Shown here: piece by piece, positions 29,359-64,000 of the stretch
Layout: each line of letters opens with the position of its first letter
Position numbering within the stretch: position 1 is the first letter of the stretch
DNA from: Chlorobiota bacterium
GTDB lineage: Bacteria; Bacteroidota; Ignavibacteria; Kapaibacteriales; UBA2268
Length of the DNA stretch: 64,000 nucleotides
Assembly: GCA_046290495.1 (NCBI GenBank)
Contig: JBKAGT010000005.1
Span: 1,602,270-1,666,269, forward strand
Direction of reading: 5' to 3'
Notes under the pieces: model-generated
Told to the model about the DNA's origin: nothing
Database searches by the model: none
What the model saw: only the letters and a program-made list of their open reading frames with translations
Position numbers and translations under genes: made by a program

Positions 29359-29613
29359 TTAAAAACCATTTTTCTCTTCAAGTTTATATATTGCTAATGG
29401 ATGATCATTTTGATACTCCCAAAAATATAGCCTTTTGCAGCTAGGGCATTTCCAAAAAGTTATTTCATAACCGTCAAAGTCATGTATTCTCTCTCCTTGG
29501 TCTATTCGATCGAGAGCAGAAATCCATTCTTCATCACTAAAAACAATATATTGTATTTCAGGATTACTTGAATTACTCATTGCTTTTCCACACTTACACA
29601 AAATCCCAGACAT
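29359..29613 (-). CDS. small zinc-ribbon-like protein
   Basis: 84 aa. CKCG near the N-terminus and CPSC near the C-terminus form a four-Cys arrangement. Confidence 0.45.
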   Translation of the reverse strand: MSGILCKCGKAMSNSSNPEIQYIVFSDEEWISALDRIDQGERIHDFDGYEITFWKCPSCKRLYFWEYQNDHPLAIYKLEEKNGF

Positions 29614-29654
29614 GATTTCTCCTATGTTGGTTTACGGATTTTAATCATTTCTTA

Positions 29655-38455: not shown

Positions 38456-40234
38456 TTAATACCTATAGCCAAGACCTAGTCCTATTTGATAAAGCTCATC
38501 AATCTCACCAAACCCAAGTAAAAATTGCATGTCAAGCCATATTCTAGAACTATAAATCTCTACAGCATGACCAAAATTAACTGCAAAATCGGTATCAAAG
38601 CTGTTGTCATAGCCACCTATACCAAAATAAGAATATGAATCAACTTCTCCGTAAGCATCACCTGGCATTTGTGAAACATACTCAAATGACCATTGACGAG
38701 CTAGGACATTCCTAACATCTGTTACATTATATCTAGCTCTCATATTATAAGCGAACAAACCTAATTTTATAGGTGTAGACTCAGCATCTTCAAACTTTAA
38801 ACCCTGATTACTAAATGATGTGTTATCATTTTCAACTATCTGAGTAGCTACAACCCCAAAACTCAAAAGAACTTTCAATTCATTTATTGGTTCTATCTCC
38901 AATTCGATATTAGATACTGTAGAAGTAACATCACTTTCTCCAGTTATACCCTGTACACTTATATAATTATTGAAAGTAACCGCTAATGGAATCTCATTGA
39001 CTAGTGCATCATACTTCTTATACTTAGAGTGTTCCCATGTCGGATTTACTAATGACTCACGCAAATATCTAGGAGTAGATCCGTATCTGATATAACTTTC
39101 GAACTCTTCTCTTCTCACATAACTAGCTATTGCGTAGATTGAATAATTTGCTACCCTGTCTCTCCATCTATAACATGCAATATCATCAGCATCTGCAAGA
39201 CTATATATCTTGTATTTAATATTTGAATTTATCTCATCTGCAAAATCTTCACCAGAAGCATCTTGACGTGCTATTTCCCAATGATATTGAAACTCTTCTA
39301 TTAACTTATCGGCTTTTTCTTCATCCATTTCAGTGTCAAATTCACAGTGTAACTCGGCTTTTTTGAAAAGATAATTAACCAAATAATATCTAGCTATTGC
39401 ATAGTCTGGCTCTAATTCTACAGCTTTCGTTATCATATCAATCGCTTTATCAACATGTTCCATTTTCTGTACAGAATCCTCAGTCTCATTAATCTTTATA
39501 TATTCTGCATCGGCAAAACACATTTGCTTATAAACTTCATAGTTATCTGTACCAATAGCTCTCTTAAGAGGAATCTCATTGCTTTCTGCATCTTCTAGTG
39601 CTTTAACCAAGTGTTCACGATTTCGCAAGAAACCAGTAGATTCTACATTGAGCCCAACCAACTTAGCGTAGACTTGCCCAACTATATCACCTTTATAATT
39701 TATAGCCGGCCCTCCACTATTTCCAGGGTTAATTGGAGCTGTTGTCATCAGTGAACTATCTTTGGTGCTACTACTTAGAATTCCTGATGTAACTTTTATC
39801 TCATCATCATTCAGATCTGACCCAGGGAATCCCATTATTAAAACTTCATCCCCTTGGTTTATACTTGCGTCCTTGTTCATTTTTAGTGTAGGTAAATTGA
39901 GGTCTTCGGTTTTTAATATGGCAATATCAAGATCTTCATCTTCCCATATTACATAGGCTGCACTTGTATCTGGTTTATCTGTGTCTGTTCTACCTACTAC
40001 ATACAAACCCATAGCATCTTCTACTACATGATGATTAGTAAATATCCATCCTTTGTCGTTAACGGCAAATCCTGACCCAGTTGAATAATAGTAACTATTA
40101 CCTGCTCCAGGAACTTGCATATTATAGATTCTCACTACTGCGTCTTTATTTTTTTCAAACGCTTCAATTTTCGTTTGTGAGAATAGAAGTTGTTGGCTTA
40201 ATAATACTAATGATAATATTAGAGTTAATTTCAT
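38456..40234 (-). CDS. secreted trypsin-like (S1C/DegP-type) serine protease fused to helical middle region and beta-barrel-like C-terminus
   Basis: 592 aa with signal peptide. Catalytic triad contexts are intact: FTNHHVV (His), DLDIAILK (Asp), GNSGGP (Ser). The C-terminal ~180 aa show an alternating hydrophobic pattern and end in GLGLGYRY. Confidence 0.75.
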   Translation of the reverse strand: MKLTLILSLVLLSQQLLFSQTKIEAFEKNKDAVVRIYNMQVPGAGNSYYYSTGSGFAVNDKGWIFTNHHVVEDAMGLYVVGRTDTDKPDTSAAYVIWEDEDLDIAILKTEDLNLPTLKMNKDASINQGDEVLIMGFPGSDLNDDEIKVTSGILSSSTKDSSLMTTAPINPGNSGGPAINYKGDIVGQVYAKLVGLNVESTGFLRNREHLVKALEDAESNEIPLKRAIGTDNYEVYKQMCFADAEYIKINETEDSVQKMEHVDKAIDMITKAVELEPDYAIARYYLVNYLFKKAELHCEFDTEMDEEKADKLIEEFQYHWEIARQDASGEDFADEINSNIKYKIYSLADADDIACYRWRDRVANYSIYAIASYVRREEFESYIRYGSTPRYLRESLVNPTWEHSKYKKYDALVNEIPLAVTFNNYISVQGITGESDVTSTVSNIELEIEPINELKVLLSFGVVATQIVENDNTSFSNQGLKFEDAESTPIKLGLFAYNMRARYNVTDVRNVLARQWSFEYVSQMPGDAYGEVDSYSYFGIGGYDNSFDTDFAVNFGHAVEIYSSRIWLDMQFLLGFGEIDELYQIGLGLGYRY

Positions 40235-40254: not shown

Positions 40255-42093
40255 TTAATAATACGCTTCTAAACCTAAATTTAAGGTTTTAATATTGTTA
40301 GGGTTGTCAGTTAAAGATAGCTTACTCAAAAAGTAGTAGTTTTTATAAAATCTTATTCCTAGGCCGATACCAAACATAGATGTTTCTTCATCGGATAAAT
40401 ATACTTCATTACTATAACTAACTGTATTAACTCCACCTAAAACACTTACACCCATTGTAATATAGTAGTCTGTTAATCCATCTATATCATTTGGTCTGTT
40501 TAAAACCATATTAAAATCTATTAGTTTACTATAGTATAATTTATCAGAAGTTAGGTAGAAATTAGCTTCAAAAATTCCATACATAGTCAAACCAATTATT
40601 AGACTTTGCTCATTTCTATAAGCATCTGATTCTATTTCCTCCTCTTCTAGCAAGATACTTGGTAAAGGTCTTTGATAATTTTGAAATCCTAATCGAATAC
40701 CATAACCACCTATACTATAGCCAACTAGAAAGTAATTACTAATTGGAATAACATTTTTATTATCTCTATAAGGGTCAGTCATTAGTTCAGTAGAATTCGA
40801 TATAGTAATTGGACCTGGCAACCAAAAACTCCCAATTGACTCAAGACGAGTTCTTTCTTGTAACCCAACGGATCTTCTTTTGTTTTTAAAAGCTCCTATG
40901 GCATCATCTAGTTCTCGTGGTGTGGTCCCGTAATTTAACCATTGATTGAAATCCTTTGATCTTTCTTCTTTTTCATCATATTGTTCTATGAAATATTCCC
41001 AAGATCTTCTGAAGTAGTCTGTGTAAAAATCATAGTAATTAAATTTCTCATCCCCACTTCGTTTCAATTTGAAAAACACACTAGCATTTAGGCTTGCGTA
41101 TTTTATTCTCTCTTGATAATTTGAATCAGCTAACTCATATGCGTCATTAAGATAATTACTATATAACGTCGAGTATTGAGAAATATCACCACCATTTAAC
41201 TCTACAGCATCTACATATATCTTTAGTAAGTGAGCGTAAGCCAAGTTAAAGTATGTCCTTGGATTTTTCTCAAAACTCTCTGATTTTTCATTGAGTGAAA
41301 TATATTCTTCTAACCCCTCTTCTATTTCGCTAGCATCTCGTGGTTCCAAATCTTTGTAGATTTTTGTTGCTGCTTCTGCGAACTTCTTATAAGCTGATAA
41401 GTTTTCGTGGTATTGGTAATCTGTATCGTTTGTGTCTAATTGATAAGTTTCTGAGTTAGAACTATCTATCAAGCTATTAATAAATTCGTTTCTTACAAAG
41501 AAGCCTGTTTTTTCATATTCGGGTTTGTCTTTACCTGTTATTAGACCTATTAACTTACCATCCATATTAAGTGCAGCACCACCTTCCATACCGTAGTTGA
41601 GCGGAGCTGATGTTTGGACCACTGTATCTCTAATAGAGCTACTTACTATACCTTCTGTTATTACATAGTTAGAAGTTTTCATTCTATCTGCCAACCAACC
41701 AATCAGTACTATATCTTGTGCCTGCCTTATTGGCTCTTCTGTTAATTTAATTGGTTCGAATGTTGGATTCTCGGTCTTTAATAAACAAAGATTGCGAAGT
41801 GTATCAGTAGCTATCACCCAAGCTGGTGTTGGTACAGAATCATTAGCTTTATATATCGAAATGGCTTCAGCTTTAGGTAAGTTTTTTAGAGCAGTGACAA
41901 TTAGTGAACCATCACCTAATGCAAATCCACTTGATTCATAATAAGTTGGTGAAAATGTAAAACTCTGAGAATAATTATACCTAATCTTTAGAATCGAATT
42001 AGAGTAATCTGTAACAAATTTTTCAAGCTTATTTTTTGATTGAGCTGAGAATGATAGTACTAGTAAAAAAAAGAAAGTCGTTATATATTTCAT
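40255..42093 (-). CDS. catalytically dead paralog of the adjacent trypsin-like protease (pseudoprotease) with the same architecture
   Basis: 612 aa with signal peptide. Aligned triad positions are all replaced: VTALKNL (His lost), RNLCLLK (Asp to Asn), YGMEGGA (Ser to Glu). The C-terminus ends in NLGLEAYY. Confidence 0.65.
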   Translation of the reverse strand: MKYITTFFFLLVLSFSAQSKNKLEKFVTDYSNSILKIRYNYSQSFTFSPTYYESSGFALGDGSLIVTALKNLPKAEAISIYKANDSVPTPAWVIATDTLRNLCLLKTENPTFEPIKLTEEPIRQAQDIVLIGWLADRMKTSNYVITEGIVSSSIRDTVVQTSAPLNYGMEGGAALNMDGKLIGLITGKDKPEYEKTGFFVRNEFINSLIDSSNSETYQLDTNDTDYQYHENLSAYKKFAEAATKIYKDLEPRDASEIEEGLEEYISLNEKSESFEKNPRTYFNLAYAHLLKIYVDAVELNGGDISQYSTLYSNYLNDAYELADSNYQERIKYASLNASVFFKLKRSGDEKFNYYDFYTDYFRRSWEYFIEQYDEKEERSKDFNQWLNYGTTPRELDDAIGAFKNKRRSVGLQERTRLESIGSFWLPGPITISNSTELMTDPYRDNKNVIPISNYFLVGYSIGGYGIRLGFQNYQRPLPSILLEEEEIESDAYRNEQSLIIGLTMYGIFEANFYLTSDKLYYSKLIDFNMVLNRPNDIDGLTDYYITMGVSVLGGVNTVSYSNEVYLSDEETSMFGIGLGIRFYKNYYFLSKLSLTDNPNNIKTLNLGLEAYY

Positions 42094-42224: not shown

Positions 42225-43463
42225 TTACCGTACAATTATTTTGGCTGAATTGATTTTATCATCTATTGAGTAAACCACTATATGAAGCCCAGGTGGCAAG
42301 TAATAAGCATTATCAATCTTGTATTTGTAGTCCACTCTTCTTCCCATGTAATCTGTGATGTATAGTAGCTTCGCATTGCCAATTAAGCTAAACTTATTAT
42401 TAAGCAATAGCACATTCTTATTGCCTACTTGTGAATAACCCTCCCTGTTAAACACCTTATAGATGGTAGAGTTGTTCGATGCTATATAGAAGACATTTTC
42501 TTTATAATCACTTGTAAAATTATTGATTCCAATTTCAAGGTCTATTGGTTCTATATCCCTGTAAGAAACTATTAAACTAAGACTATCTGGATTAATGCAG
42601 TATAAATAGCCATCCTTTGTAAATACAAATAATGTGCTATCTTGGACTGTTGCATGAGTAATTGATTTATCAGTATATAGCCCTTCTGTATAAGTATAAA
42701 GTGTATGGCTAATACTCTCACGAAATGTGAGCCCATTTATACCTGACAGGTTTTGCCCAGTCCTTATTGCACCGATTGGAGATGAATATAGTTTCAAATA
42801 CTTAGCCATATTCCTTTCAATATAGTCTTTAGTTGCATCGATATAATAATGCTTATTTTTGATAACAGTTTCACCATTGAAAGAAAATTCAGGGAGATAA
42901 TATTCATAATAATCAGTACCTCTGAAGTAATAATCATAGATAAGACTATAACCACCTCCGAATATATATACTGAATCTTGGAAAATTATACTACTCTGTT
43001 CTATCTCACTCAGGGTACTAATTTTTTCATAGTCCATATCTGTAGCTTCGTGGTAGAACCCAAGTTCCTTATTTGTAAGTGTCAGATAATCTATAGCATC
43101 TTTTGCCGCCATAGTTACCAAATCTAAATCCGTATCTACACTTTCGTCTATCCACGTTGCCCCATAGTCCATAGTTCTATATACCAATCCCGAATCACCG
43201 ATAGCAAATACTGTATGCGGGTCTTTGGAGTAGAGTTGGTTCAGCTTGGTGCTGCTCTCTAGGGCTATATCCCAGCTGGCTCCATCATCGGTGGAGTGGT
43301 ATATGCTATTTCCTGAGCGAGCAATGATTGTAGCGCCATAGCCATAGACCTCGTCTATGTTCAAGCTGTCATAGGGCAGAACAATAGGGGTGAGTTCTAT
43401 TTGCTTATCGGCAAATAGCTGAGTAGTAAATATGATTATGAGTATTATTATATGCTTTTTCAT
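42225..43463 (-). CDS. array family A member 5: secreted Asp-box/BNR-like propeller protein with T9SS-CTD-like tail
   Basis: 412 aa with signal peptide. Invariant N-module DKQIELTPIVLPYDSLNIDEVYGYGATIIARSGNSIYHSTDDGASWD...YRTMDYGATW. Diverged middle. Tail LLYITDYMGRRV...GLHIVVYSIDDKINSAKIIVR resembles a T9SS CTD without the PNP motif. Confidence 0.7.
   Translation of the reverse strand: MKKHIIILIIIFTTQLFADKQIELTPIVLPYDSLNIDEVYGYGATIIARSGNSIYHSTDDGASWDIALESSTKLNQLYSKDPHTVFAIGDSGLVYRTMDYGATWIDESVDTDLDLVTMAAKDAIDYLTLTNKELGFYHEATDMDYEKISTLSEIEQSSIIFQDSVYIFGGGYSLIYDYYFRGTDYYEYYLPEFSFNGETVIKNKHYYIDATKDYIERNMAKYLKLYSSPIGAIRTGQNLSGINGLTFRESISHTLYTYTEGLYTDKSITHATVQDSTLFVFTKDGYLYCINPDSLSLIVSYRDIEPIDLEIGINNFTSDYKENVFYIASNNSTIYKVFNREGYSQVGNKNVLLLNNKFSLIGNAKLLYITDYMGRRVDYKYKIDNAYYLPPGLHIVVYSIDDKINSAKIIVR
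43081..43175. repeat. 95-nt perfect-identity tract shared by A5 and A4 (other copy at 45951..46045)
   Basis: gtcagataatctatagcatcttttgccgccatagttaccaaatc...ccatagtccatagt is identical in both genes. Flanking coding sequence differs at many synonymous sites. Confidence 0.85.
43183..43322. repeat. 140-nt perfect-identity tract shared by A5 and A1 (other copy at 53046..53185)
   Basis: accaatcccgaatcaccgatagcaaatactgtatgcgggtc...tttcctgagcgagc is identical between the first and last array genes, ~9.9 kb apart. A2, A3 and A4 differ at numerous positions in the same stretch. Confidence 0.85.
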
Positions 43464-45071
43464 CTACTCAGAAACAATAACTTTCTTTGGCTGAACAAAT
43501 ATACTATACTCCTCATTCTCATCGAATGCTGTTAGTGATACGCTGTACTCCCCAGGTATAGTGTAGGTATGAGCTGGTTCCATTTCATAGCTGTATGTAC
43601 CATCACCGAAGTTCCAGATGTACCTCACCGCATTTTCTGAGGAGTAATTCTTGAACTGAACGGTAAATGGTGCTTGACCACTGAATTCACTAAAGTCAAA
43701 AGATGCTTTCAATTTCTGAGTTACTTCCACTTGCTTTGTTATAGTGTCCATATTTCCATATTCATCTGTTACAATTAGCTCAACTTCGTAATTCCCAGCT
43801 GAAGCAAATTTGTGCACTGGATGCCTTTCTGAAGATGTATTACCATCACCAAAGTCCCATTCCCACTCAGTCACTGCACCAAATGATTCATCTGAAAATT
43901 GAAGCTCATAATTTGCTGTATTTTTAAAACTGAAATCTGATTTTAACGAATCTGTTTCAAACACACTCAAATCATGCTTATAAAGATAACCACCATGACC
44001 TACAGAAAGCGTATATCCATCGCCAGTATTCATTACAAATCTTCCTAGATAGGGGGCAATCACTTTTTCATTCTTTATCAAATTTTTCGATGGGTAGTGT
44101 ATTGACATTATCTTTGTGCTATCACCATTTACACCAAAAGCCACATTCACGGTGTTTCTTCCTTCATCCCAATAAGCGCCTATTAGGTTTTCATAACCCT
44201 GTGTTGGGTGGATTGCATATCTTTCATGGATATTAAAATTATACAAAACTACTGTGTCCTTATACATAGTTACGCAAATGGAATCATTTATTATTTCTTT
44301 GAACCAACTTGATTCATCAATATAAATTTCACCTGTTTGTTGGAATCCATTTTCATTATTTAGATAGAAATTGTGTGTATCAGCTTTATCATAAGTCCTA
44401 GCTTCCTGATACGTTATATTGTCATTTGAATAAATAAAAATACTGTCGTTATTATGAGTAATCATTGAATTTAGATTCAAAATCTTCACATCTGCCACAC
44501 TTTTTTGGTTAGTATTTATCAGCTCCCTTCGCTGAAACCATATCTTATCCCTGCGACTTATATCAGCAAGAAAAATTTGAGCTAGAAATGTACTATCGCT
44601 CAAACTGTAAAAATTATTTTTAGAGTTATTATCATGATATGTGAAATCACGAGTGTTTACCCAATGCATTAGAGTGTCAAATTTGTTCGACTTTTTAGTA
44701 ATAATAAAGTTTGTGTCATTCGTATAATTTCCGAACTCCATTACAACAATTTTGGCCGTATCAGAAATAGACAAATCCCACATACCATACTCAGGTATAT
44801 TATCCGAATTGGTATTTTCTTGATTTATTATTCTTATAGCATTACCATTATTTTTATCGATAATCACTCCATAGTATCTATACTTCCAAAGCACTACATC
44901 ACTATAATCACGAAGGAAACCATCTTTAGATGCATTGATATCAGAGATAAAAAAATCATTATTCTGTTTCCATTCTGTATTGACTTCTTCTATCTTAATA
45001 TCATCCCATATTGGCACAGCATGTGTGAAATAGCAAATTGCAAAGAACAAGAATATCATCACATTTCTCAT
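43464..45071 (-). CDS. array family B member 3: secreted protein with variable N-terminal domain and two C-terminal PKD domains
   Basis: 535 aa with signal peptide. PKD signatures WEWDFGDGNTS...HKFASAGNYEVELIVTD and YIWNFGDGTYS...HTYTIPGEYSVSLTAFD. The stop TAG abuts the next ATG, and the start overlaps the upstream stop (ATGA). Confidence 0.75.
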   Translation of the reverse strand: MRNVMIFLFFAICYFTHAVPIWDDIKIEEVNTEWKQNNDFFISDINASKDGFLRDYSDVVLWKYRYYGVIIDKNNGNAIRIINQENTNSDNIPEYGMWDLSISDTAKIVVMEFGNYTNDTNFIITKKSNKFDTLMHWVNTRDFTYHDNNSKNNFYSLSDSTFLAQIFLADISRRDKIWFQRRELINTNQKSVADVKILNLNSMITHNNDSIFIYSNDNITYQEARTYDKADTHNFYLNNENGFQQTGEIYIDESSWFKEIINDSICVTMYKDTVVLYNFNIHERYAIHPTQGYENLIGAYWDEGRNTVNVAFGVNGDSTKIMSIHYPSKNLIKNEKVIAPYLGRFVMNTGDGYTLSVGHGGYLYKHDLSVFETDSLKSDFSFKNTANYELQFSDESFGAVTEWEWDFGDGNTSSERHPVHKFASAGNYEVELIVTDEYGNMDTITKQVEVTQKLKASFDFSEFSGQAPFTVQFKNYSSENAVRYIWNFGDGTYSYEMEPAHTYTIPGEYSVSLTAFDENEEYSIFVQPKKVIVSE

Positions 45072-46333
45072 TTTACCACCATCACTTTTATTGTTCTCAA
45101 CCTATTATCCTTGTCTTTGTACGTTATAAAATTCAATCCCAATTCTAGTTGATATGTATTTGCTCTTATCATATTAGCTTTTATTTTTCTACCCATATAA
45201 TCAGTTATATGAAGTAGTTTTGACCTATTACTTAACTCTAATTTCCTTCCGGATATGTTTACAGAGTTATCTGTTTCTAACTCAACAGATGAAGGTAAAT
45301 TTACTAACTTGGCTTTATATATAATGGAATTATCAGATGCAATGTAATATTCGTTTGTTCTTAAATTAGAAATGAAATTAATAGCGTCTATGTCAAATTT
45401 AACAGGCTCTAGATATTTTTCAGAAACCACTTCATCTTCAATATCTTTAGGGTTTAATATAAAGAGGTTCCCTTCCTCAGTAAAGACAAATAAAGAGTCA
45501 TTTTGCACTGTAGCGTAAGTTATTATATTATTATGAAGATATAGCCCATTTACATACAAGTAAAGAGCATGCCCTATATAATAACTAAACACCAGACCAG
45601 AGTGACCTTTACCCTCTAATCTTCCTGATTTAATAAGACCTAAAGGTGAATTAAAATACCTAATTTCATCAATTAGATAATTTTCTATATAATCAGCAGG
45701 AATGGTTTCAAAACGGTGAGAATCAATCCTTTTTACTGATTTACCATCGAAAGTGAAATCTGGTAGATAATAATTATAGTAATCTTTACCTGCAAACGTT
45801 TCTGCATATTTATAACTGTAACTACCACCAAATATATAAATTGAATCTTGGTAAAGAGCACTACTTATTTTTGTATTGCTTTCATTACTTATTCTCTCAT
45901 ACTTACTTTCTATTCGTTCCCTATGAAAACCTATACAATAGGAAGTTAGAGTCAGATAATCTATAGCATCTTTTGCCGCCATAGTTACCAAATCTAAATC
46001 CGTATCTACACTTTCGTCTATCCACGTTGCCCCATAGTCCATAGTCCTATACACCAACCCCGAATCACCAATAACAAATACTGTATGAGGATTTTTGGAG
46101 TATAGCTGATTCAACTTAGTAGAACTCTCTAAAGCGATATCCCAACTGGCTCCATCATCGGTAGAGTGGTAAATTGTATTTCCTGAGCGAGCGATTATAG
46201 TAGCTCCATAGCCATAGACCTCATCTATATTCAAGCTGTCATACGGCAGCACAATAGGGGTAAGCTCTATTTGCTTCTCGGCATATAGTTGAGTAGTAGC
46301 TATGATTAATAATATAATTGTAAGGTTTCTCAT
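45068..46333 (-). CDS. array family A member 4
   Basis: 421 aa with the same N-module as the other A members and a CTD-like tail (LLHITDYMGRKI...LNFITYKDKDNRLRTIKVMVVK). Confidence 0.7.
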   Translation of the reverse strand: MRNLTIILLIIATTQLYAEKQIELTPIVLPYDSLNIDEVYGYGATIIARSGNTIYHSTDDGASWDIALESSTKLNQLYSKNPHTVFVIGDSGLVYRTMDYGATWIDESVDTDLDLVTMAAKDAIDYLTLTSYCIGFHRERIESKYERISNESNTKISSALYQDSIYIFGGSYSYKYAETFAGKDYYNYYLPDFTFDGKSVKRIDSHRFETIPADYIENYLIDEIRYFNSPLGLIKSGRLEGKGHSGLVFSYYIGHALYLYVNGLYLHNNIITYATVQNDSLFVFTEEGNLFILNPKDIEDEVVSEKYLEPVKFDIDAINFISNLRTNEYYIASDNSIIYKAKLVNLPSSVELETDNSVNISGRKLELSNRSKLLHITDYMGRKIKANMIRANTYQLELGLNFITYKDKDNRLRTIKVMVVK

Positions 46334-47950
46334 CTATTCTGTTACCACAACATTCTTTGACTGAACAATGGTATGGAACTTCTCATTCTCATCAAACACT
46401 GTTAGTGAAATGCTATATTTCCCTGGTATAGAGTAGGTATGAGCTGGCTCCATCTCATAGCTATATGTTCCATCGCCGAAGTTCCAGATATACCTCACAG
46501 CATTATCTGATGAGTAGTTTTTGAATTGAACGGTAAATGGAGCTTGACCGCTGAACACACCAAAGTCAAAAGACGCTTTCAATTTCTGGGTCACTTTCAC
46601 TTGCTTTGTTATAGAGTCTTTATTTCCATATTCATCAGTAACTATTAGTTCAACATCATAATTCCCAGCTGAAGCAAATTTGTGCCCTGGGTGCCGTTCA
46701 GTCGACACACCTCCATCACCGAAATTCCATCGCCAGTCAGTCACTGCACCAAATGATTCGTCTGTGAAATGCAGCTCATAATTGGCTGTGTTCTTATAAC
46801 TAAAATCTGCAGTAAGAGAGTCTGTTTTGAATACACTCAAATCATGTTTATACAATAATCCATCTTGCCCAACTGATAGTGTATAGCCATCGCCAGTATT
46901 CATTACAAATCTACCGAGGTATGGGGCGACTACTCTCTCTCTTTTGACAACATTTTTTGAAGGATAGTGAATAGACATAATATTACAACTGTCACCTTCT
47001 CGTACAAATGCTACATCGACAGTTTTTTTATCTTCACTCCAATAAATTCCTATCGGGGTTTCATTACCATTTGTTGGATGTTTTGTGTACGTGTTTTTAT
47101 TGTTATGGTCATAAAGGACTAAAGTATCTTTATACATTAGGGCTAGCACAGAGTCATTGATTAACTCTGTAAACAAGCTAGATTCACCAGTTGTAAGTCT
47201 TACCTTTCGCTCAAATGTAGAGTTAGTGTAAGTCATTATGTCAATAGAGTTTTCGTTATTATATTTACCTTCATGATCATACACTATATTATTATCTGTG
47301 AAAACAAACAAGTCTTTACTTATATTTGTTCTTAACCCCAACAAATTTATTTCATTCATATGTCTTATTCTAATGCTGTCTGGCTTAGTTAAATCTATAA
47401 AATTTTTTGCTGTTACTCTCCAATCGTACGAACCATCTATTCTAATGTGATCATGCTGATCCAAAAACTGTTCATCTGTCAATGCATAGAAAAAGGGATT
47501 AGCATCTGAATCCGGAAATAAATCTCTCCCATCAGTAACCCACGTAAAGAGTGTTTCTGACTCATTATTTTTGTAAGCAATAATTGAATTTGTATGCCCG
47601 GTACGATGACCATATTCTATGGCTATTATCTTTGAACTGTCCGTTGGCGATAAATCCCAGTTCATATGGTAAAAAAAACCAGGAACAGAAACTGGATTTT
47701 GTTCTATTTTTTTAAAAACATTACCCGTTTCTTTATCTATAAACCAACCCCAAAATTGATATTTCCAAAAGATGTAATTTCCATAGTCTCTGGGCACACC
47801 ATAGCCATGGATATTGACATCAGATTTGAAATAATCATCAATTTCAGTCCAATTGGTTTCAACTGATATCTTATGAATATCATCAATCATTTCATATCCC
47901 AATACAGAGCTGTAGCTGATAAGTATTATATTTAACAATAAGTATTTCAT
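46334..47950 (-). CDS. array family B member 2 (variable N-terminal domain + 2 PKD)
   Basis: 538 aa. The C-terminal ~215 aa are close to member 3. The N-terminal ~320 aa are only distantly similar. Confidence 0.75.
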   Translation of the reverse strand: MKYLLLNIILISYSSVLGYEMIDDIHKISVETNWTEIDDYFKSDVNIHGYGVPRDYGNYIFWKYQFWGWFIDKETGNVFKKIEQNPVSVPGFFYHMNWDLSPTDSSKIIAIEYGHRTGHTNSIIAYKNNESETLFTWVTDGRDLFPDSDANPFFYALTDEQFLDQHDHIRIDGSYDWRVTAKNFIDLTKPDSIRIRHMNEINLLGLRTNISKDLFVFTDNNIVYDHEGKYNNENSIDIMTYTNSTFERKVRLTTGESSLFTELINDSVLALMYKDTLVLYDHNNKNTYTKHPTNGNETPIGIYWSEDKKTVDVAFVREGDSCNIMSIHYPSKNVVKRERVVAPYLGRFVMNTGDGYTLSVGQDGLLYKHDLSVFKTDSLTADFSYKNTANYELHFTDESFGAVTDWRWNFGDGGVSTERHPGHKFASAGNYDVELIVTDEYGNKDSITKQVKVTQKLKASFDFGVFSGQAPFTVQFKNYSSDNAVRYIWNFGDGTYSYEMEPAHTYSIPGKYSISLTVFDENEKFHTIVQSKNVVVTE

Positions 47951-49200
47951 TCTATCACCATCACTTTTATTGTTCTTATATTATAGTCCTTATCAGAGAA
48001 AGTGACAAAATTCAGCCCTCTTTCTAAGATATATTTATTACTACCAACCTTAATCAATTCTTTTTGCTTTCCTAAGTAATCTGTTATAAAAATTAGTTCC
48101 GTATTATTTATCAGTTCTATCTCATTGTTGTATAAAAGAATCGAGTTGTTAGATTCCATTTCTACTGATGTTGGTAACTCTGCCAGCTTAGTCCTATATA
48201 TTGTTGAGTTGTTTGATGCAACGTAATAGTCATCACTTCCTATTGTATGTACATTATTGATTGGTGAAACACCTAAATTATAATGAGGTAAATATTCGTA
48301 ATCATTTTGATTTTCAAAGTTTTCTAAGGTATTCTGCACTAAATAGCCCTCTCTTGTGAAAATATTAACTGTGGAATCATTTTTGTTTACATAAATAACT
48401 CTTTGGTTAGGAAGTGTAACACCTGGAATTTTGAAATCAAAAATTTCTCCCCATCTACTGTTAATCATAATTGCTCCTACACCGCGGTTTACAACCGAAT
48501 AATATAATTTATTTTCGAGACTAAATATTAATAATGAATCCGTATTGTATCCATCTCTTTTTTCGGATAATCCATCTTTGGCATCTGCAAGATGTTTTGA
48601 TATTCTCTCTCCATCATAACTATAATAATAAAGTCTAAAATTATACCATCTATCATCGAACATATTATAATATTCATATAAATAGTATCTACCTCCAAAG
48701 AAATACTTTTGTTCATTTTTAACAATCGATAATAATTCAACATCATTCTCATTTGTCAAAGTAATAACCTCTTCTCCTAATTCTTTTGCTCTGAATTGAA
48801 ATCTTCGCGGCGTTATAATCATATACTCCGAATAATCACCCGCAGACATGGCTCTTAGTTCCAAATCCGTATCAATACTCACATCTACCCAACTAGCCCC
48901 ATAGTCAAAAGTACGATACACCAACCCCGAATCACCTATAGCAAATACTGTATGCGGGTCTTTGGAGTAAAGTTGGTTCAGCTTGGTGTTGCTCTCCAGT
49001 GCTATGTCCCAGCTGGCTCCATCATCCGTGGAGTGGTATATAGTATTTCCAGAGCGAGCGATGATAGTAGTTCCATAGCCATAGACCTCATCTATATTCA
49101 AGCTATAGTACGGCAGCACAATAGGGGTGAGCTCTATTTGCTTTTCGGCATATAGCTGAATTGTAGCTATGACTAATAATATAATTGTAAGGTTTCTCAT
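47947..49200 (-). CDS. array family A member 3
   Basis: 417 aa with conserved N-module, unique middle and CTD-like tail (LIFITDYLGKQK...LNFVTFSDKDYNIRTIKVMVIE). Confidence 0.7.
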   Translation of the reverse strand: MRNLTIILLVIATIQLYAEKQIELTPIVLPYYSLNIDEVYGYGTTIIARSGNTIYHSTDDGASWDIALESNTKLNQLYSKDPHTVFAIGDSGLVYRTFDYGASWVDVSIDTDLELRAMSAGDYSEYMIITPRRFQFRAKELGEEVITLTNENDVELLSIVKNEQKYFFGGRYYLYEYYNMFDDRWYNFRLYYYSYDGERISKHLADAKDGLSEKRDGYNTDSLLIFSLENKLYYSVVNRGVGAIMINSRWGEIFDFKIPGVTLPNQRVIYVNKNDSTVNIFTREGYLVQNTLENFENQNDYEYLPHYNLGVSPINNVHTIGSDDYYVASNNSTIYRTKLAELPTSVEMESNNSILLYNNEIELINNTELIFITDYLGKQKELIKVGSNKYILERGLNFVTFSDKDYNIRTIKVMVIE

Positions 49201-50817
49201 CTAATCTGTTACCACTACTTTTTTGGGTTGGACAAATGTATTGAAGTTTTCGTATTCATCTACTGCAGTAAGCGATACACTATATTGACCAGGGATAGTG
49301 TAAGTGTGAGCTGGCTCCATTTCATAGCTATATGTACCATCGCCGAAGTTCCAGATATACCTCACGGCATTCTCTGATGAGTAGTTTTTGAATTGTAAGG
49401 TAAATGGCGCTTGCCCACTGAACACACTAAAGTCAAATGAAGGTCTTAAGAACTTCCTGACTATTACTTTTTGAGTTGTTGTGTCACTCAGATTATATTC
49501 ATTTGTTACTATCTGCGTTACATCGTATTCACCACTTTCTTCGTAAGTGTGAATTGGATTCCTTTCTTCTGATATATTACCATCACCGAAATCCCAACGC
49601 CACTCTTTTATAGCACCATAAGATGAGTCAATGAAAGCGATAGTATTATCATCTAGTAAATGATAGTCAAAACTGGCAGCTACACTATCGAATGTTAATA
49701 TATCAAAATTGTGTTTATACAAATAATTGTTGTCCCCTATAGATAGGAATGAACCATCTTTCAGTTGCCCGATTGGTTGACCCAGATAGTAGTTCTTTTT
49801 ATACCCATCAAAAAGTAATTTGCCTGTTTTATAATGAGAAGTTAATATATTATCGCCACTGATAATCGAAAATGTATGGTATGTTGTATCCACATAAACC
49901 GACATAACATCTGCTCTTCTCTTGAATTCATGCTTATATACAGATTCTAAAGTTCTGTAATTGTAAACATTGATTGAGTCTCCATTGCTCATTACAACTA
50001 AAGAGTCATTTATGATTTTGTTAAAAAAGTTGCTTGTATATGAAGGAATACTTTGAACATGTTCAACTGTATCATATCTCAACCTATATATTTCGTGGTC
50101 TCTTGTTTCATCATCATAACGTTCTGTATATACCTTAGCTATCAAATAATCACTCGTATTATTAATTGAGTAACTATGCAAATTTGGTAACTGAGCATCA
50201 ATAATACTATCTGTTGAACCTTGATATAGTTGCATTCTTCTAGATTTGAGATACCACCCTCTAATTGGAAATCTGCAGTCGAACTGAGTAAGAATTAAAT
50301 TCTCATTCAATACTGATAGATTGCAATAAAACTCATCGTCAAATACTCTATTATCAAATTTACTGTACCATTCTTTGGTTAACTCAGTTTCACCATAGTA
50401 CTTTGTGAGTAATCTACCTTTGATTCCTGAGATAGAATCGTGTAAAAAATACTCTATTATATATAGCTTGTTGGTATCATTTTTTGATAATTGCCAATTT
50501 GAATATTGAATATCAGAATACCAATCACTTTTACCTTTGTTATACTCCATAATGGGCATACTTCTTTTTCTAAATAATGAGCCATCATTTTTGTCAATGT
50601 AATACCCATCAAATCCAACCTTATAGAAATAAAAATTTGTATATTCAGTTATCGATCCATCTCTGGGTAATTTCAAATCACTTCTCTGATGATCCTCTTC
50701 AACTGCCCATTCAGTACTTAGAGAAGAATCTGTCATCACCTCATGAAATATGAAATCTTCAGCACAATAAAGACTACAATATGATAAAAATACTATTATA
50801 AATGCTATTCTATTCAT
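49201..50817 (-). CDS. array family B member 1 (variable N-terminal domain + 2 PKD)
   Basis: 538 aa. The last PKD domain is nearly identical to members 2 and 3. The first PKD and the N-terminal domain are diverged. Confidence 0.75.
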   Translation of the reverse strand: MNRIAFIIVFLSYCSLYCAEDFIFHEVMTDSSLSTEWAVEEDHQRSDLKLPRDGSITEYTNFYFYKVGFDGYYIDKNDGSLFRKRSMPIMEYNKGKSDWYSDIQYSNWQLSKNDTNKLYIIEYFLHDSISGIKGRLLTKYYGETELTKEWYSKFDNRVFDDEFYCNLSVLNENLILTQFDCRFPIRGWYLKSRRMQLYQGSTDSIIDAQLPNLHSYSINNTSDYLIAKVYTERYDDETRDHEIYRLRYDTVEHVQSIPSYTSNFFNKIINDSLVVMSNGDSINVYNYRTLESVYKHEFKRRADVMSVYVDTTYHTFSIISGDNILTSHYKTGKLLFDGYKKNYYLGQPIGQLKDGSFLSIGDNNYLYKHNFDILTFDSVAASFDYHLLDDNTIAFIDSSYGAIKEWRWDFGDGNISEERNPIHTYEESGEYDVTQIVTNEYNLSDTTTQKVIVRKFLRPSFDFSVFSGQAPFTLQFKNYSSENAVRYIWNFGDGTYSYEMEPAHTYTIPGQYSVSLTAVDEYENFNTFVQPKKVVVTD

Positions 50818-52067
50818 TCTATTATCACCTTCTTAATTATGTATTTATTACCTTCAGCGAATTTGAGTATATGCATACCATCCTCTAGTTCAATTGTCCT
50901 CTCATCAATTTGCTTTAAGCTACTTTTTTGTCCCAGATAGTTCGTTGCATTTATTAACTCATATCTATTTTCAAATATTACTTTATTTCCACTGATTGAG
51001 ATTGATGTTTCATTTTCTTGATTTATATTAGTTTGAATGCTTACAAATTTTGCTTTGTAAACTCGTGAGCTATCACATGCTAAATAATACTGGTTGTCAA
51101 AAGTTTGGAATACATGATTTATGAAAGGTATCTCTAAATTTTGGTGTTCTATATTTGTTAACCCTAATTTCGTATTTAAATCATTATAGTCCAACCATGC
51201 CCAATTACCATTTCTAGTCACTATTACCAGTGAACTATCTTTTACCCCTACATACTGAATTGTATCCGAATTAAAGATTATACCTGGGTAGTTTGAGAAT
51301 TCATATAGAACTCCAAGAGATTCAAAAGTGAGACCAGCAGAGTTAATTCTAGGATTATTTCCAGTAAAAATAAGTCCTAATTTGCTAGGAAATATTTGAA
51401 AATTGTAAGATACTTTATACTTAAAAAGTTTATCAGTCACACCAAAATCATCGTATTCAAAACAAAACAATGAGTCTCCGTTGAATGTATAATAATTTAA
51501 CCAATAATCATATGTGTATTCATCGTCAACAAAACCATCTAACACTTTATAGTGACTGGTAGAATACCAATAGTTGCTTTCAGAGTATTTGACAGAATTT
51601 ATAGATCTAGAGTTATAGTTACTAATTGCTTTATATTCAGAAATCATGTCTTTCTTAAAATAACCTATAGTATGCTTTGTTACCACATAATACTCACTGT
51701 AATTTTTCGCTGCCATTTTATTCATACTTAGGCTTGTCTCGTGACTTACATCAAACCAAGTCGCACCATAGTCAAAAGTACGATAAACCAATCCCGAATC
51801 ACCTATAGCAAAAACCGTGTGTGGATCTTTAGAGTACAGTTGGTTCAACTTAGTCTCACTCTTTAGAGCTATGTCCCAGCTGGCACCATCATCGGTGGAG
51901 TGGTAGATTGTATTGCCAGAGCGAACGATTATAGTAGCGCCATAGCCATATACCTCGTCTATGTTTAAGCTGTCATAGGGCAGAACAATAGGGGTGAGTT
52001 CTATCTGCTTCTCGGCAAATAAACCAGAATTAGTTAAAAGAATTGAAACAAAGATTATATACTTCAT
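50814..52067 (-). CDS. array family A member 2
   Basis: 417 aa, similar to member 1 over most of its length. CTD-like tail LINATNYLGQKS...GMHILKFAEGNKYIIKKVIIE. Confidence 0.7.
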   Translation of the reverse strand: MKYIIFVSILLTNSGLFAEKQIELTPIVLPYDSLNIDEVYGYGATIIVRSGNTIYHSTDDGASWDIALKSETKLNQLYSKDPHTVFAIGDSGLVYRTFDYGATWFDVSHETSLSMNKMAAKNYSEYYVVTKHTIGYFKKDMISEYKAISNYNSRSINSVKYSESNYWYSTSHYKVLDGFVDDEYTYDYWLNYYTFNGDSLFCFEYDDFGVTDKLFKYKVSYNFQIFPSKLGLIFTGNNPRINSAGLTFESLGVLYEFSNYPGIIFNSDTIQYVGVKDSSLVIVTRNGNWAWLDYNDLNTKLGLTNIEHQNLEIPFINHVFQTFDNQYYLACDSSRVYKAKFVSIQTNINQENETSISISGNKVIFENRYELINATNYLGQKSSLKQIDERTIELEDGMHILKFAEGNKYIIKKVIIE

Positions 52068-53329
52068 TCTATTATCATCTTTTTAATAAGACACTTATTA
52101 CTCTTGGCGAACTTGAGTATATACATACCTTTTTCTAATTCTATTGTCTTTTCATCTATTTGCTTATAAATGATTTGTTGTCCAAGGTAGTTGTATGCAT
52201 TTATTAACTCATAACCATTTTCCAATACAACACTATTACCCCTGATTGAGATTGATTTTTCATTTTCTTGATTTATACTGGTTGGAATACTTACAAATTT
52301 TGCTTTGTAAACACGAGAACTGTCACATGCTAAATAATATTGATTGTCATAAGTTTGGAATACATGGTTGATATTAGGAGTACCGAGTTCACTATATTCT
52401 ACCTCATCTGGAGAAACAAAATCTTCTTCAATTTCTGTGTAGTGCATCCAAACCCAAAGGCCATGTTTAGTGATCACATTCAAAGTATCATTTGTTAAAT
52501 CTATATGATTGATAGTATCTCCTTTTATCATCATACCTCCAGCATCACCATAATGCTCATACAGCGAAAATAATCTACCGAAAGAAATTCCTGCTGAATG
52601 AACGTCAGGACTATTTCCTGTGAAAAGTATTCCATATTCTGTTGGAAAAATATTAAAGTTATAGGAAATATATCTATCAAATTTATCCTCTGGCACCCTA
52701 TATTCGTCATGCTTGAAAGAATGAAGTACTTCTCCCGTAAATTGATAGTATGGCAACCAAAACTCATTATAAGTTTCCCTTACTAAATCATCATATTCAC
52801 AGTACTTATAAAAATCTGTACAATACCAATACCCAGTTTTAGCGTATTTTAAAGAAAAGATAGTTTTATAACTATAATTACTAATTGCTTTATATTCCGA
52901 AAACATGTCTTTCTTGAAATAACCTATAGTATGCTTAGTTACAACAAAATACTCGCTGTGATCTTTCGCTGCCATTTTATTCATACTTAGGTTTGTCTCG
53001 TGACTAACATCAAACCAAGTCGCTCCATAATCAAAAGTACGATACACCAATCCCGAATCACCGATAGCAAATACTGTATGCGGGTCTTTGGAGTAGAGTT
53101 GGTTCAGCTTGGTGCTGCTCTCTAGGGCTATATCCCAGCTGGCTCCATCATCGGTGGAGTGGTATATGCTATTTCCTGAGCGAGCGATTATGGTCGCTCC
53201 ATAGCCATAGACCTCATCTATGTTCAAACTGTCATACGGCAGCACAATAGGGGTAAGCTCTATTTGCTTTTCGGCACTAGATGTTGAAAAGGTAAGAATA
53301 AATAAAAATGTAAGTAGTGTAGTCTTCAT
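52064..53329 (-). CDS. array family A member 1 (first gene of the array)
   Basis: The ORF track starts at 53374. The ATG at 53329 gives MKTTLLTFLFILTFSTSSA|EKQIEL..., matching the signal-peptide starts of all other A members. Confidence 0.7.
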   Translation of the reverse strand: MKTTLLTFLFILTFSTSSAEKQIELTPIVLPYDSLNIDEVYGYGATIIARSGNSIYHSTDDGASWDIALESSTKLNQLYSKDPHTVFAIGDSGLVYRTFDYGATWFDVSHETNLSMNKMAAKDHSEYFVVTKHTIGYFKKDMFSEYKAISNYSYKTIFSLKYAKTGYWYCTDFYKYCEYDDLVRETYNEFWLPYYQFTGEVLHSFKHDEYRVPEDKFDRYISYNFNIFPTEYGILFTGNSPDVHSAGISFGRLFSLYEHYGDAGGMMIKGDTINHIDLTNDTLNVITKHGLWVWMHYTEIEEDFVSPDEVEYSELGTPNINHVFQTYDNQYYLACDSSRVYKAKFVSIPTSINQENEKSISIRGNSVVLENGYELINAYNYLGQQIIYKQIDEKTIELEKGMYILKFAKSNKCLIKKMIIE

Positions 53330-53449
53330 ATTTTTAAAGACACATGAACACCAAAAACGTCTCCAAGATGACAAAGTTTTTTTAATCCATCCTATTTCTA
53401 TAATAATTTTCTTTTTGTAGTTTGTGTGCTTAGATAAACATATTTAATT

Positions 53450-55308: not shown

Positions 55309-56109
55309 TTAGGACTTAACCTTTCCAGCTATATACATTTCTTCCATAGTAGGTGATTCTACACCACCAGCTTTTTCCAAAGTAACTGCAAACATAACGG
55401 AGGTGTTTGCTGAGCCAATTTTACGGATTTCTTTTCTGCCATCAGCATCGAATACACCGACACTAATTGGTTGACCTCTATCAGAGATTGTCCATAACTG
55501 ATATTGCTTGCCTTCAGGGTTTTTAGGAAGAGCTTTCACGTCTAAGTACACTTCATCATTCTCTTTGTCCCATATCGCGTAGGCAACCGATTCAGGTGAT
55601 TTATCTTTTAGTCCACTTAGCTTCACAATTTCAGAATTTGGTAAGGAATAGATTTCATTGTTTTGGTTTAGTATATCCTTCAGCTCAGTGAAATCTTGCA
55701 CTATATTTTGATTCATAGAGTTCAGCTCAGCTATCTCTTGTTCAGCATTGCTAAGTTGATTGCTAGTATCAACTGCCCAGAATATAGCTCCAGCCGCAAC
55801 AAATACAAACACGGCAGCAACCAATGTGCTCACACTAAACCCACTAGATTTAGCTTCATCAATTGATATGATTTTGCTCTCTTTCTCTGCTATTGCGGTC
55901 CAAATCTGATCTTTCAATTTTGGATCCGGAGGAGTAGCACCTAGCTCAGCCATTATACTCAAACTAGCAGCTGCACTCTCAACTTCACTAGCTAACTGCG
56001 GATAAGTCTTTGCAAGACACTCCACTTCAGCGCGTTCTTGCTTAGTAATCTCACCGAGTACATATCGCTCTATTGCTCCTGATTCTATGTATTGTTGTAT
56101 ATCTATCAT
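55309..56109 (-). CDS. anti-sigma factor (RskA-like C-terminal domain)
   Basis: 266 aa. N-terminal anti-sigma helix region, one TM segment, and a C-terminal KQYQLWTISDRGQPISVGVF block. Overlaps the ECF sigma gene stop (ATGA). Confidence 0.75.
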   Translation of the reverse strand: MIDIQQYIESGAIERYVLGEITKQERAEVECLAKTYPQLASEVESAAASLSIMAELGATPPDPKLKDQIWTAIAEKESKIISIDEAKSSGFSVSTLVAAVFVFVAAGAIFWAVDTSNQLSNAEQEIAELNSMNQNIVQDFTELKDILNQNNEIYSLPNSEIVKLSGLKDKSPESVAYAIWDKENDEVYLDVKALPKNPEGKQYQLWTISDRGQPISVGVFDADGRKEIRKIGSANTSVMFAVTLEKAGGVESPTMEEMYIAGKVKS

Positions 56110-56636
56110 GGATATATTTTTCTTAATTCTCTTAATGCAATTCTAATTTTAGACTTTACTGTACCTATTGGCATATCTAACTTTTCAGATATATCACTGT
56201 GCGAAAAACCATAGTAATAAGATAGCTTCAGCACTTCTTTGTGATCATCGTCCAATTCGTCCAGTGTTTCCCAAAGCTCTTTGTTCGCTCTTTTTATCTC
56301 TGGATTTGTCTCTGTATCTATATTTACGTTCAAAGTATCAAATTGGATTTTTCTGCTCTCTTGGCCGTAGCGTATCTTATCTATTGCGCCATTTCTAGTT
56401 ATGTTGAGCATCCAGGTAAAAAGCGAGCCTCGGTCTGGGTTGAATCTGTCAATATTTTTATAAACTTTTACAAAAGACTCTTGCAAGACATCCTCTGCTA
56501 TATCTTTCTTCTGAGTGATATGCAAAGCAATACCGTAGAGCTTGTCGGAGTAATTATCATATAGATAATTGTACGTCGCCCTATCTTTGGTTTTTAATCC
56601 TGCTACAATTTCTTTTATATTTTTTTCTTTTTGCAT
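56106..56636 (-). CDS. ECF (RpoE-like) RNA polymerase sigma factor
   Basis: 176 aa. Region 2 (DVLQESFVKVYKNIDRF) and region 4 HTH (SHSDISEKLDMPIGTVKSKI). Confidence 0.9.
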   Translation of the reverse strand: MQKEKNIKEIVAGLKTKDRATYNYLYDNYSDKLYGIALHITQKKDIAEDVLQESFVKVYKNIDRFNPDRGSLFTWMLNITRNGAIDKIRYGQESRKIQFDTLNVNIDTETNPEIKRANKELWETLDELDDDHKEVLKLSYYYGFSHSDISEKLDMPIGTVKSKIRIALRELRKIYP

Positions 56637-61903: not shown

Positions 61904-62371
61904 TTAGTCAGTGTATATATCACTCGCCCACTTTTCGAACATCATGATTTTTGTTGAATCACTAAAGGTTGAGTCTGAATAAAAAACAGCTTTCCATCCA
62001 GAGTTTAAAAATAAGGTCAAATGTTGATAATATCGGTAATCTTTATAAGATTCTTTTTGTGCTTTATAAAATGAATCTCCAACTCTAAGACCATCCTTAG
62101 AAACAAAATTTGTATCAAAAGTGTATAAACCTTTTACAACACCTAATTCTGTTAAACTAGCATAATACACAATACTATCAATTTGTATTCTATAGCTCTT
62201 TTGTAAGCTCATACTAAAGTCCATGATTAATATTGTTTCTGACTTATCTATATGATCGTAACTAATTTCTTTAAACGAATTAACATCATACGATTTACAA
62301 GAGATTGCGATTAACATAAACAACCAAAAATGTTTTGTGTTTTTGATATTTTTCATAAATTTTTTTGGCAT
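61904..62371 (-). CDS. hypothetical lipoprotein
   Basis: 155-aa ORF with lipobox (IAISC). Confidence 0.5.
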   Translation of the reverse strand: MPKKFMKNIKNTKHFWLFMLIAISCKSYDVNSFKEISYDHIDKSETILIMDFSMSLQKSYRIQIDSIVYYASLTELGVVKGLYTFDTNFVSKDGLRVGDSFYKAQKESYKDYRYYQHLTLFLNSGWKAVFYSDSTFSDSTKIMMFEKWASDIYTD

Positions 62372-62373
62372 GT

Positions 62374-62952: not shown

Positions 62953-62956
62953 TGTA

Positions 62957-63977: not shown

Positions 63978-64000
63978 GTAATGTTCAACAGACTCATCAT

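Follow-up and report, generated by a model that had tools for sequence, protein, structure and literature searches.

A gap-free alternating array of two predicted exported beta-propeller families, probably diversified by recombination, in an uncultured Chlorobiota bacterium

What is the role of a gene array in which two protein families alternate with no base between them, and why do some parts of these proteins stay almost the same from copy to copy while the rest diverges? The question is raised by a 64,000-nucleotide stretch of a Chlorobiota genome (contig JBKAGT010000005.1 of assembly GCA_046290495.1, positions 1,602,270 to 1,666,269), here called the window, which holds eight genes of two families that we name A (A5 to A1 in order of transcription) and B (B3 to B1). 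In the reading that we prefer, to which we give a probability of roughly 0.55, this locus is an operon-like array specific to its lineage, in which two families of exported beta-propellers are inherited together; they would be surface proteins delivered by the type IX secretion system (T9SS) together with their partners, and would have been diversified by recombination.

All eight open reading frames (ORFs) reported in a preliminary description of this DNA are present and intact on the minus strand (53329-42225), in the transcription order A-A-B-A-B-A-B-A and with zero intergenic bases. The junctions it listed are exact at all seven positions; every A with a gene behind it ends in an ATGA overlap with the next start, and every B stop codon (TAG) directly abuts the next ATG. 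Its upper limit of the array, 53374, has to be moved, being an upstream TTG, since alignment of the homologues favours the ATG at 53329 (MKTTLL...) as the start of A5. No A-like or B-like sequence was found elsewhere in the 64-kb window. Terminator-like sites in the array region numbered 0 against 4.7 expected, and the absence of gaps and of such sites suggests that all eight genes are co-transcribed. A scan for sigma-70 promoters gave no enrichment over shuffled sequences, and these organisms may use other promoter types. As far as gene arrangement goes, the junctions show that each B would be made from the same message as the A upstream of it and translationally coupled to that A gene.

Family A proteins (412-421 aa) consist of a signal-peptide-like N-terminus, an Asp-box propeller of about seven blades with a Ycf48-like fold, and a divergent T9SS-type C-terminal domain (CTD). 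By eye, one can make out a K/R-rich n-region, a hydrophobic core and a site reading L-Y/F-A followed by E-K-Q at the N-terminus; residues 2-17 form a low-confidence helix in the model of A2. Two motifs of the type S-x-D-x-G-x-x-W, HSTDDGASW and RT(M/F)DYGA(T/S)W, occur in every copy, as had been noticed at first sight of the sequence. The AlphaFold2 model of A2, for which 30 sequences were aligned (predicted local distance difference, pLDDT, 84; predicted template modelling score, pTM, 0.75), has them inside a propeller (residues ~20-345) that is separate from a beta-sandwich at residues ~358-419. Compared with the PDB, this model matched Ycf48 structures best (TM 0.62-0.66 on target), followed by generic seven-bladed propellers; a likeness to PorZ was rejected, the fold match being weak (TM 0.32). 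In Pfam, the A proteins stay below the gathering thresholds of Sortilin-Vps10 (22-26 bits, cut-off 33) and PSII_BNR (15-22 bits, cut-off 27), the weak PSII_BNR matches being present in 30 of 30 family members, and the joint Pfam/NCBIfam scan gave 30 bits (E 2e-7, cut-off 175) for the "F510_1955 family glycosylhydrolase".

The distribution of identity along A is very uneven. Residues 19-106 share 91-97% protein identity among the five copies (82-92% in the DNA of this N-module), the middle (107-345) 23-53% and the tail 17-72%, so that the near-invariant module with a remainder about half identical at best, as first described, is borne out by measurement. The constant module is still ~70% identical to homologues of a distant clade, the remaining sequence of which has dropped to ~25-30%. 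Remote matches of the family profile are multi-Asp-box proteins that align only at positions ~50-120, within the N-module; the constant module would therefore correspond to two canonical Asp-box blades, the other blades having lost the motif. Strand order in the model suggests that the last blade, with its family-invariant Y-x-A-x3-S-x-I-Y-K motif, is closed by the invariant strand at the N-terminus (residues 20-28). With this order, the constant parts of A would form one contiguous sector (blades 7/1/2), leaving blades 3-6 variable.

A tail resembling a T9SS CTD had been proposed for A and none for B, and the proposal is upheld by profile, hhalign, jackhmmer and paralogue evidence, which describes the A tail as a divergent CTD. 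A5 is the sole copy with a weak match to Por_Secre_tail/TIGR04183 (E 0.004-0.01), and 1 of the 30 A family members matches Por_Secre_tail at E<0.1. When the family profile was compared with the PDB, solved T9SS CTDs made up 5 of the 7 best matches, each individually weak (E 0.05-0.26); the structures concerned (RgpB 5hfs, 7pq4, 5ag9; 8glj_D; 8glk_D) are matched end-to-end over the last ~67 positions. With hhalign, the terminal two strands of the A tail fall in register with genuine CTDs of the window and its relatives (P 2.4e-4), and a jackhmmer search seeded with the window's two genuine CTDs recruits the tail of one A member, from the related locus L013. Divergent A paralogues of two further loci, L019 and L020, end in canonical YPNP-type CTDs with Pfam PF18962 matches that can be aligned with the A tail; compared with these, the tail of the window copies has lost the YPNP-type motif region. 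A carries, in sum, a C-terminal beta-sandwich of ~70-80 residues homologous to known CTDs, and it is probably a T9SS cargo with a degenerate CTD. Bona fide CTD cargo is also encoded nearby, by two genes of the window scoring 59 and 47 bits, which speaks indirectly for T9SS machinery in this genome.

Family B proteins (535-538 aa) have a signal-peptide-like N-terminus, a second type of propeller and two PKD domains, and they have no sorting domain. No family in Pfam or NCBIfam matched the N-terminal domain. The two PKD domains that had been assigned to each B score 99-110 bits, far over the cut-off of 27 (PF18911/PF00801; PKD_4 with 103 bits in B2), and their profile matches in the PDB are the PKD domains of ColH. 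In the AlphaFold2 model of B2 (pLDDT 86), a propeller at residues ~25-370 is followed by PKD1 (~376-455) and PKD2 (~456-538); the top match of this model in the PDB was 1l0q, a YVTN-propeller-plus-PKD fragment of a Methanosarcina S-layer protein, and then SorCS2 and other propellers. Among the B copies of the window, the propeller is 23-41% identical, PKD1 44-80% and PKD2 78-82%. The last PKD had been called almost invariant, which holds for its core of ~30-50 residues (~96% identical among copies) and is too strong for PKD2 as a whole. Four multi-PKD proteins of 523-548 aa (P0046, P0050, P0053 and P0054) were considered as distant B homologues and rejected, having a C-terminal hydrophobic tail that resembles a membrane anchor.

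Folds of this kind bring to mind secreted proteins that act on carbohydrates or bind them and that have multiplied into paralogues in the ordinary way; the constant Asp-box blades would be the active or sugar site and the variable blades, together with B, would tune the substrate range. An enzyme or lectin family is a reasonable rival, since Asp-box propellers are typically met with in sialidases and GH74/sortilin-like proteins, PKD domains are frequent companions of secreted hydrolases, the collagenase ColH among them, and the weak matches of A to Sortilin-Vps10, PSII_BNR and the glycosylhydrolase family, like the remote multi-Asp-box matches confined to the N-module, point the same way. Yet the enzyme-family matches lie far under threshold (30 against 175 bits), the Asp-boxes are kept in two blades only, the best fold is that of the non-enzymatic Ycf48, and no genes for carbohydrate-active enzymes or transporters flank the array. 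Moreover, the strain-level replacement of alleles at one slot, described below, is more typical of exposed surface proteins, and we consider this explanation unlikely on balance.

What keeps one part of A constant? DNA repeats were found straddling the B/A junctions, close to where a conserved block crossing the gene boundaries had been placed, and the alternation of invariant and variable blocks persists after alignment, the divergence not being uniform along the genes. The invariance of the repeated blocks lies at the protein level, the DNA being only 78-92% identical. Between paralogues, the N-module of A has a synonymous divergence (dS) of 0.37-1.15 and a nonsynonymous divergence (dN) of 0.02-0.05, which gives a dN/dS of 0.03-0.09; for A5 and A4, its dS (1.08) equals nearly that of the rest of the gene (1.12). 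The variable part of A has a dN/dS of 0.15-0.55 between paralogues, and PKD2 of B 0.04-0.13 between copies. Between orthologues, the mean ratio rises from 0.03-0.05 in the N-module to 0.13-0.16 in the middle and 0.19-0.23 in the tail, to be compared with 0.05-0.10 in flanking genes, so the constraint on the variable parts appears somewhat relaxed. High dS with low dN/dS, and a module kept in a distant clade, point to purifying selection on the protein as the main cause of the constant A module, and an origin of this block purely from gene conversion is ruled out by its synonymous divergence. These rates show two parts that strong purifying selection holds near-constant, in A the N-terminal strand with the two blades that follow and in B the core of the terminal PKD. 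That the conserved blocks, suggested to be arms for homologous recombination, are above all homogenised DNA does not fit these values, which speak for protein constraint as the main cause; besides, most exact matches between blocks are only 13-42 nt long, and the one crossover identified lies in the CTD-coding region, outside the constant block.

Recombination at the array, by expansion, shuffling or conversion, had nevertheless been rightly suspected, and its traces are a hybrid gene, an identity tract and replaced alleles. One of the relatives compared is L002, the locus of a sister strain from a Joint Genome Institute (JGI) metagenome that is ~88-91% identical across the flanks. Pairwise alignment and the pattern of informative sites show that about one A unit of the window is absent from L002, the first gene of which is an A5/A4 hybrid, A5-like for ~1120 nt and A4-like for the last ~130 nt, and results from an unequal crossover within the part that codes for the CTD. 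Within the window, A5 and A1 share an identical tract of 140 nt in spite of lying 10 kb apart and of 24 differences in the 267 nt of the module; in a permutation test, 0 of 200,000 shuffles reached such a length, and exact matches in other pairs of paralogues extend to only 13-42 nt.

The third trace is a turnover of alleles that is concentrated at one slot. Positional orthologues of A5, A2, A1, B3 and B1 are 92-96% identical across the window, L002 and L014 (94% for B3 and its L002 orthologue). The middle of A3, on the other hand, is only 37-60% identical to its positional counterparts in strains ~90% identical elsewhere, its variable region and CTD being non-orthologous to those of L002, and the B2 propeller is 58-72% identical to its counterparts as against 92-96% for B1 and B3. 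The middle of A4 is only 50-53% identical to any A of the related strains. Compared with L014, the tail of A3 is 92% identical and its middle only 44%, which makes A3 a mosaic. The replaced alleles are high in dS (1.4 overall for A3 and its L002 counterpart L2b, ~2.1 or saturated in the middle; ~0.7-0.9 for B2; background 0.2-0.9), and are therefore old alleles brought in by recombination rather than products of rapid mutation. Between orthologues, the dS of the N-module (0.48-0.87) exceeds that of the middle of the same genes (0.19-0.28), as is expected if the modules are occasionally overwritten from paralogues.

Taken together, these observations favour the reading given at the outset. The array has grown by tandem duplication of A-B units, and it changes through unequal crossovers between paralogous copies and through gene conversion over short tracts, with old divergent alleles imported at one hot slot, A3/B2. 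The T9SS would carry A to the cell surface or the medium, and B would act together with A, the two probably forming a complex. Perhaps the constant parts serve as docking surfaces for a common partner, the other blades providing specificity or exposed surfaces. As all copies are intact and probably expressed together, they would form a standing, not a switchable, repertoire of variant surface proteins. We suggest, with low confidence, that these variable proteins serve for binding or as a coat, and that phages, predators or partner cells exert the pressure on them.

Several points count against this picture. The A tail remains below the curated thresholds, the best scores being those of A5 with 16.6 bits where the cut-off is 27 and 17.1 bits where it is 23, and as it fails those of Pfam and TIGRFAM we can only infer export of A by the T9SS. 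Signal peptides were assessed by eye and from the structure model only, co-transcription would follow from gene spacing alone, and the names of the homologues are uninformative, all being "hypothetical". Mean dN/dS is below 1 everywhere, with no direct signal of diversifying or positive selection, and what looks like hypervariability goes back to old divergence of paralogues plus import of alleles and not to fast mutation. Finally, the mirror-tree correlation of A with B, 0.83 when the ATGA-coupled genes are paired, is about as good in the alternative pairing (0.72), and in L002 and L001 the B3-type gene follows an A5-type, not an A4-type, gene. The test thus does not single out the cognate, co-varying A/B pairs of the preliminary description, the correlation being significant for both pairings, as synteny alone would give.

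A bolder version makes the array a system of combinatorial surface recognition, at which each A-B pair would form a heterodimer through a constant interface, made by the N-terminal blades of A and PKD2 of B. The T9SS cargo A would thereby carry the CTD-less B to the surface or hold it there, and the variable propeller sectors would provide different binding specificities, which strains would exchange by recombination at the constant blocks. If this were true, it would add a new type to the variable-receptor systems of bacteria, borne by small-genome members of the Bacteroidota/Chlorobiota group; we hold it to be rather doubtful, more so than the carbohydrate-related explanation. Still less probable is programmed antigenic variation, either by silent cassettes that rewrite one expressed gene or by a diversity-generating retroelement (DGR) or site-specific invertase, with the constant blocks as recombination sites. 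The constant blocks do flank variable segments, a conversion tract links the first and last genes, and alleles are mosaic between strains. However, silent cassettes of the vls/pilS type would be truncated, promoterless donors beside one expression site. No such cassette is present here, none of the eight genes being shortened and all having a start codon, a predicted signal peptide and coupled junctions. A DGR target was rejected in turn, the 64-kb window holding no array-like DNA or template repeat outside the array and the divergent alleles having a saturated dS; these alleles are as high in dS as in dN, and so are old. No recombinase or reverse transcriptase was found among the ten array-adjacent genes scanned, and the constant blocks have only 78-92% DNA identity, with exact matches of mostly 13-42 nt.

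How far the array extends among bacteria was assessed at three scales. Among 5.8 billion clustered proteins, 31 A and ~14 full-length B homologues were found; an exhaustive profile search of 1.84 billion representatives gave ~16 full-length A clusters; and 185,579 species genomes yielded only seven loci, in metagenome-assembled genomes labelled Chlorobiota, Ignavibacteriae or Candidatus Kapaibacterium (Bacteroidota/Chlorobiota group). All loci have one or more A and then B, tightly packed. As the preliminary description anticipated, the locus is not static among relatives, copy number and order both differing: AABABABA in the window and L014, AABABAB in L001, ABABABA in L002, ...ABAB in L015, AAAB in L003, AAB in L004-6, L008 and L012, AB in L011, A-B plus a longer PKD/CTD protein in L013, and ABABA (A-B-A-B'-A) in L019 and L020. 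Since A precedes B at every locus, the module is ancestral and the long alternating array an expansion in the clade of the window. Neither a named system with this organisation, nor a T9SS propeller/PKD array, nor this family was found in the literature, in line with what had been supposed, and a PHROGs search of A and B gave no matches, hence no phage link.

Some of these loci deserve a remark of their own. In L013 (Candidatus Kapaibacterium), a protein of 935 aa (12801-15608) comes after the A-B pair; it shows similarity to PKD, has a genuine T9SS CTD, and may be a B-like protein with its own sorting signal. In the Ignavibacteriae-type clade (P0017-P0029), two types of tail, ...NYLEFKQGIYYLS... 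and ...NRIILKKGIYFIS..., are joined to different middle regions, which suggests modular shuffling there too. In L014, otherwise collinear, apparent frameshifts break or truncate the first A, the second A and the first B (5753-10000), which could reflect either errors in the assembly of a long-read contig or real pseudogenisation. That the repeat structure is an assembly artefact or the genes decaying, functionless duplicates, as these three broken genes might suggest, is highly improbable, because the frameshifts affect a single assembly and may be sequencing errors, the same organisation recurs in at least five independent assemblies from different sources, and every copy in the window is intact and under strong purifying selection in all its parts.

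Why should such a locus matter? Two uncharacterised families and a conserved A-then-B module are confined to one poorly known, uncultured lineage, in which the array takes up ~11 kb out of contigs of only ~1.65 Mb. It offers a clean natural case of a propeller in which one sector is strongly constrained while another diverges freely, and illustrates the evolution of a tandem array by unequal crossover, patchy gene conversion and allele import. Moreover, if A and B do form a surface complex, it would show how a CTD-less protein reaches the surface with a T9SS cargo, an open point of T9SS biology. The coordinates of the array and of its surroundings are collected in Table 1.

Table 1. Positions in the window of the array genes, their domains and repeats, the traces of recombination and the neighbouring features.
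Feature	Position	Strand	Remark
A5	53329-52064	minus	421 aa; first gene of the array; signal peptide, Asp-box beta-propeller, CTD-like tail (predicted)
A4	52067-50814	minus	417 aa; start overlaps A5 stop (ATGA)
B3	50817-49201	minus	538 aa; signal peptide, beta-propeller (both predicted), two PKD; start overlaps A4 stop (ATGA)
A3	49200-47947	minus	417 aa; ATG abuts B3 TAG; fast-turnover slot
B2	47950-46334	minus	538 aa; modelled copy
A2	46333-45068	minus	421 aa; modelled copy
B1	45071-43464	minus	535 aa
A1	43463-42225	minus	412 aa; last gene of the array
ATGA overlaps after A	52064-52067; 50814-50817; 47947-47950; 45068-45071	minus	
TAG/ATG abutments after B	49200/49201; 46333/46334; 43463/43464	minus	
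Constant N-module of A5	53009-53272	minus	two Asp-box blades, HSTDDGASW and RTFDYGATW
Constant N-module of A4	51750-52013	minus	equivalent module
Constant N-module of A3	48883-49146	minus	equivalent module
Constant N-module of A2	46016-46279	minus	equivalent module
Constant N-module of A1	43146-43409	minus	equivalent module
Beta-sandwich of A2	45071-45298	minus	residues ~358-419 of the model
PKD1 of B2	46586-46825	minus	
Conserved terminal PKD2 of B3	49204-49452	minus	abuts next A gene
Conserved terminal PKD2 of B2	46337-46585	minus	abuts next A gene
Conserved terminal PKD2 of B1	43467-43715	minus	abuts next A gene
Repeat straddling B/A junctions	42870-44210 and 45740-47080		78.6% identical
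Repeat straddling B/A junctions	43123-43887 and 48860-49624		77.7% identical
Repeat straddling B/A junctions	45993-46573 and 48860-49440		83.8% identical
140-nt identity tract	A5 53046-53185 = A1 43183-43322	minus	gene-conversion tract
About one A unit absent from L002	51030-52180	minus	
A3 variable region and CTD	48005-48844	minus	non-orthologous allele in L002; nucleotide identity 34-58% against ~90% in flanks
T9SS sorting-domain genes	34157-35812; 35822-37582	plus	59 and 47 bits (Pfam)
Trypsin_2 paralogues	38456-40234; 40255-42093	minus	592 and 612 aa
ECF sigma/RskA-type pair	55309-56636	minus	
Low G+C	6001-10000; 12001-14000; 28001-30000; 62001-64000		27-28% against ~34% in the window

The surroundings of the array are variable as well. 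Directly downstream of it lie two tandem paralogues, ~24% identical, each with a Trypsin_2 peptidase domain at the N-terminus, behind which ~400 residues match no family; the pair is missing at the corresponding place in L002 and L014. Further on, two adjacent genes have strong T9SS sorting domains, the second of them also SBBP propeller repeats, and only the tail of this second one has a counterpart in L002 and L014. With such differences between strains, the neighbourhood looks like a strain-variable island of secreted proteins. On the other side, a gene pair for an extracytoplasmic function (ECF) sigma factor and an RskA-type anti-sigma factor neighbours the array in every close relative; in the window and L002, two genes come between, one of the beta-lactamase family and one of 253 aa, and in L001 (1492-2840) it is inverted and directly adjoins the array. 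A regulatory link to the array is possible, and because of the differing orientation in L001 and the absence of this association in distant clades we draw no conclusion on regulation. A tRNA scan of the window found none, and four of its segments are low in G+C.

Finally, the array can be set beside systems already known. The best fold match of A is with Ycf48/HCF136 and the Asp-box (BNR) seven-bladed propellers (PF02012, PF15902, PF14870), A having two S-x-D-x-G-x-x-W motifs; unlike Ycf48/HCF136, with which it shares ~11% identity, A would be exported with a sorting domain, has the motif in two blades only and has no link to photosystem assembly. With T9SS cargo of the type-A CTD (gingipain RgpB; PF18962/TIGR04183), it has in common a folded passenger and a C-terminal beta-sandwich of ~70 residues. 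It differs in the tail, which is without the YPNP-type motif region and stays below curated thresholds, in the passenger, which is an uncharacterised propeller, and in its place within an array alternating with a CTD-less partner. BamH (DUF6242, Bt3727), a surface lipoprotein of the Bacteroidetes barrel-assembly machinery (BAM) complex, holds a propeller outside the outer membrane (bioRxiv 10.1101/2025.01.31.636011), and distant A members give weak or faint DUF6242_C matches. An identity of A with BamH/DUF6242 was rejected, as A has no lipobox Cys, its propeller starts from residue ~20, it ends in a CTD, and it scores 15.6 bits against a cut-off of 29. In B, the domain order, propeller then PKD, is that of the archaeal S-layer YVTN propeller-PKD protein (1l0q) and of the SorCS/sortilin ectodomains, although the global TM is low (0.2) because the orientation of the domains differs, B has no sequence similarity to them outside PKD, and both organism and cellular context are different.

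As to the array itself, tandem families of variable surface proteins, such as Chlamydia pmp, Treponema tpr and Helicobacter OMP, evolve by duplication, unequal crossover and gene conversion. The array of the window shares with them conserved and variable segments, changes in copy number, mosaic alleles and short conversion tracts, and departs from them in that two unrelated families alternate strictly with zero intergenic bases, that what stays constant is a propeller sector of two N-terminal blades, and that the bearers are not host-restricted pathogens, being uncultured bacteria of the Bacteroidota/Chlorobiota group with a free-living or unknown lifestyle. The two families and their alternating module are undescribed, whereas the principle of a recombining tandem family of variable surface proteins is already familiar.

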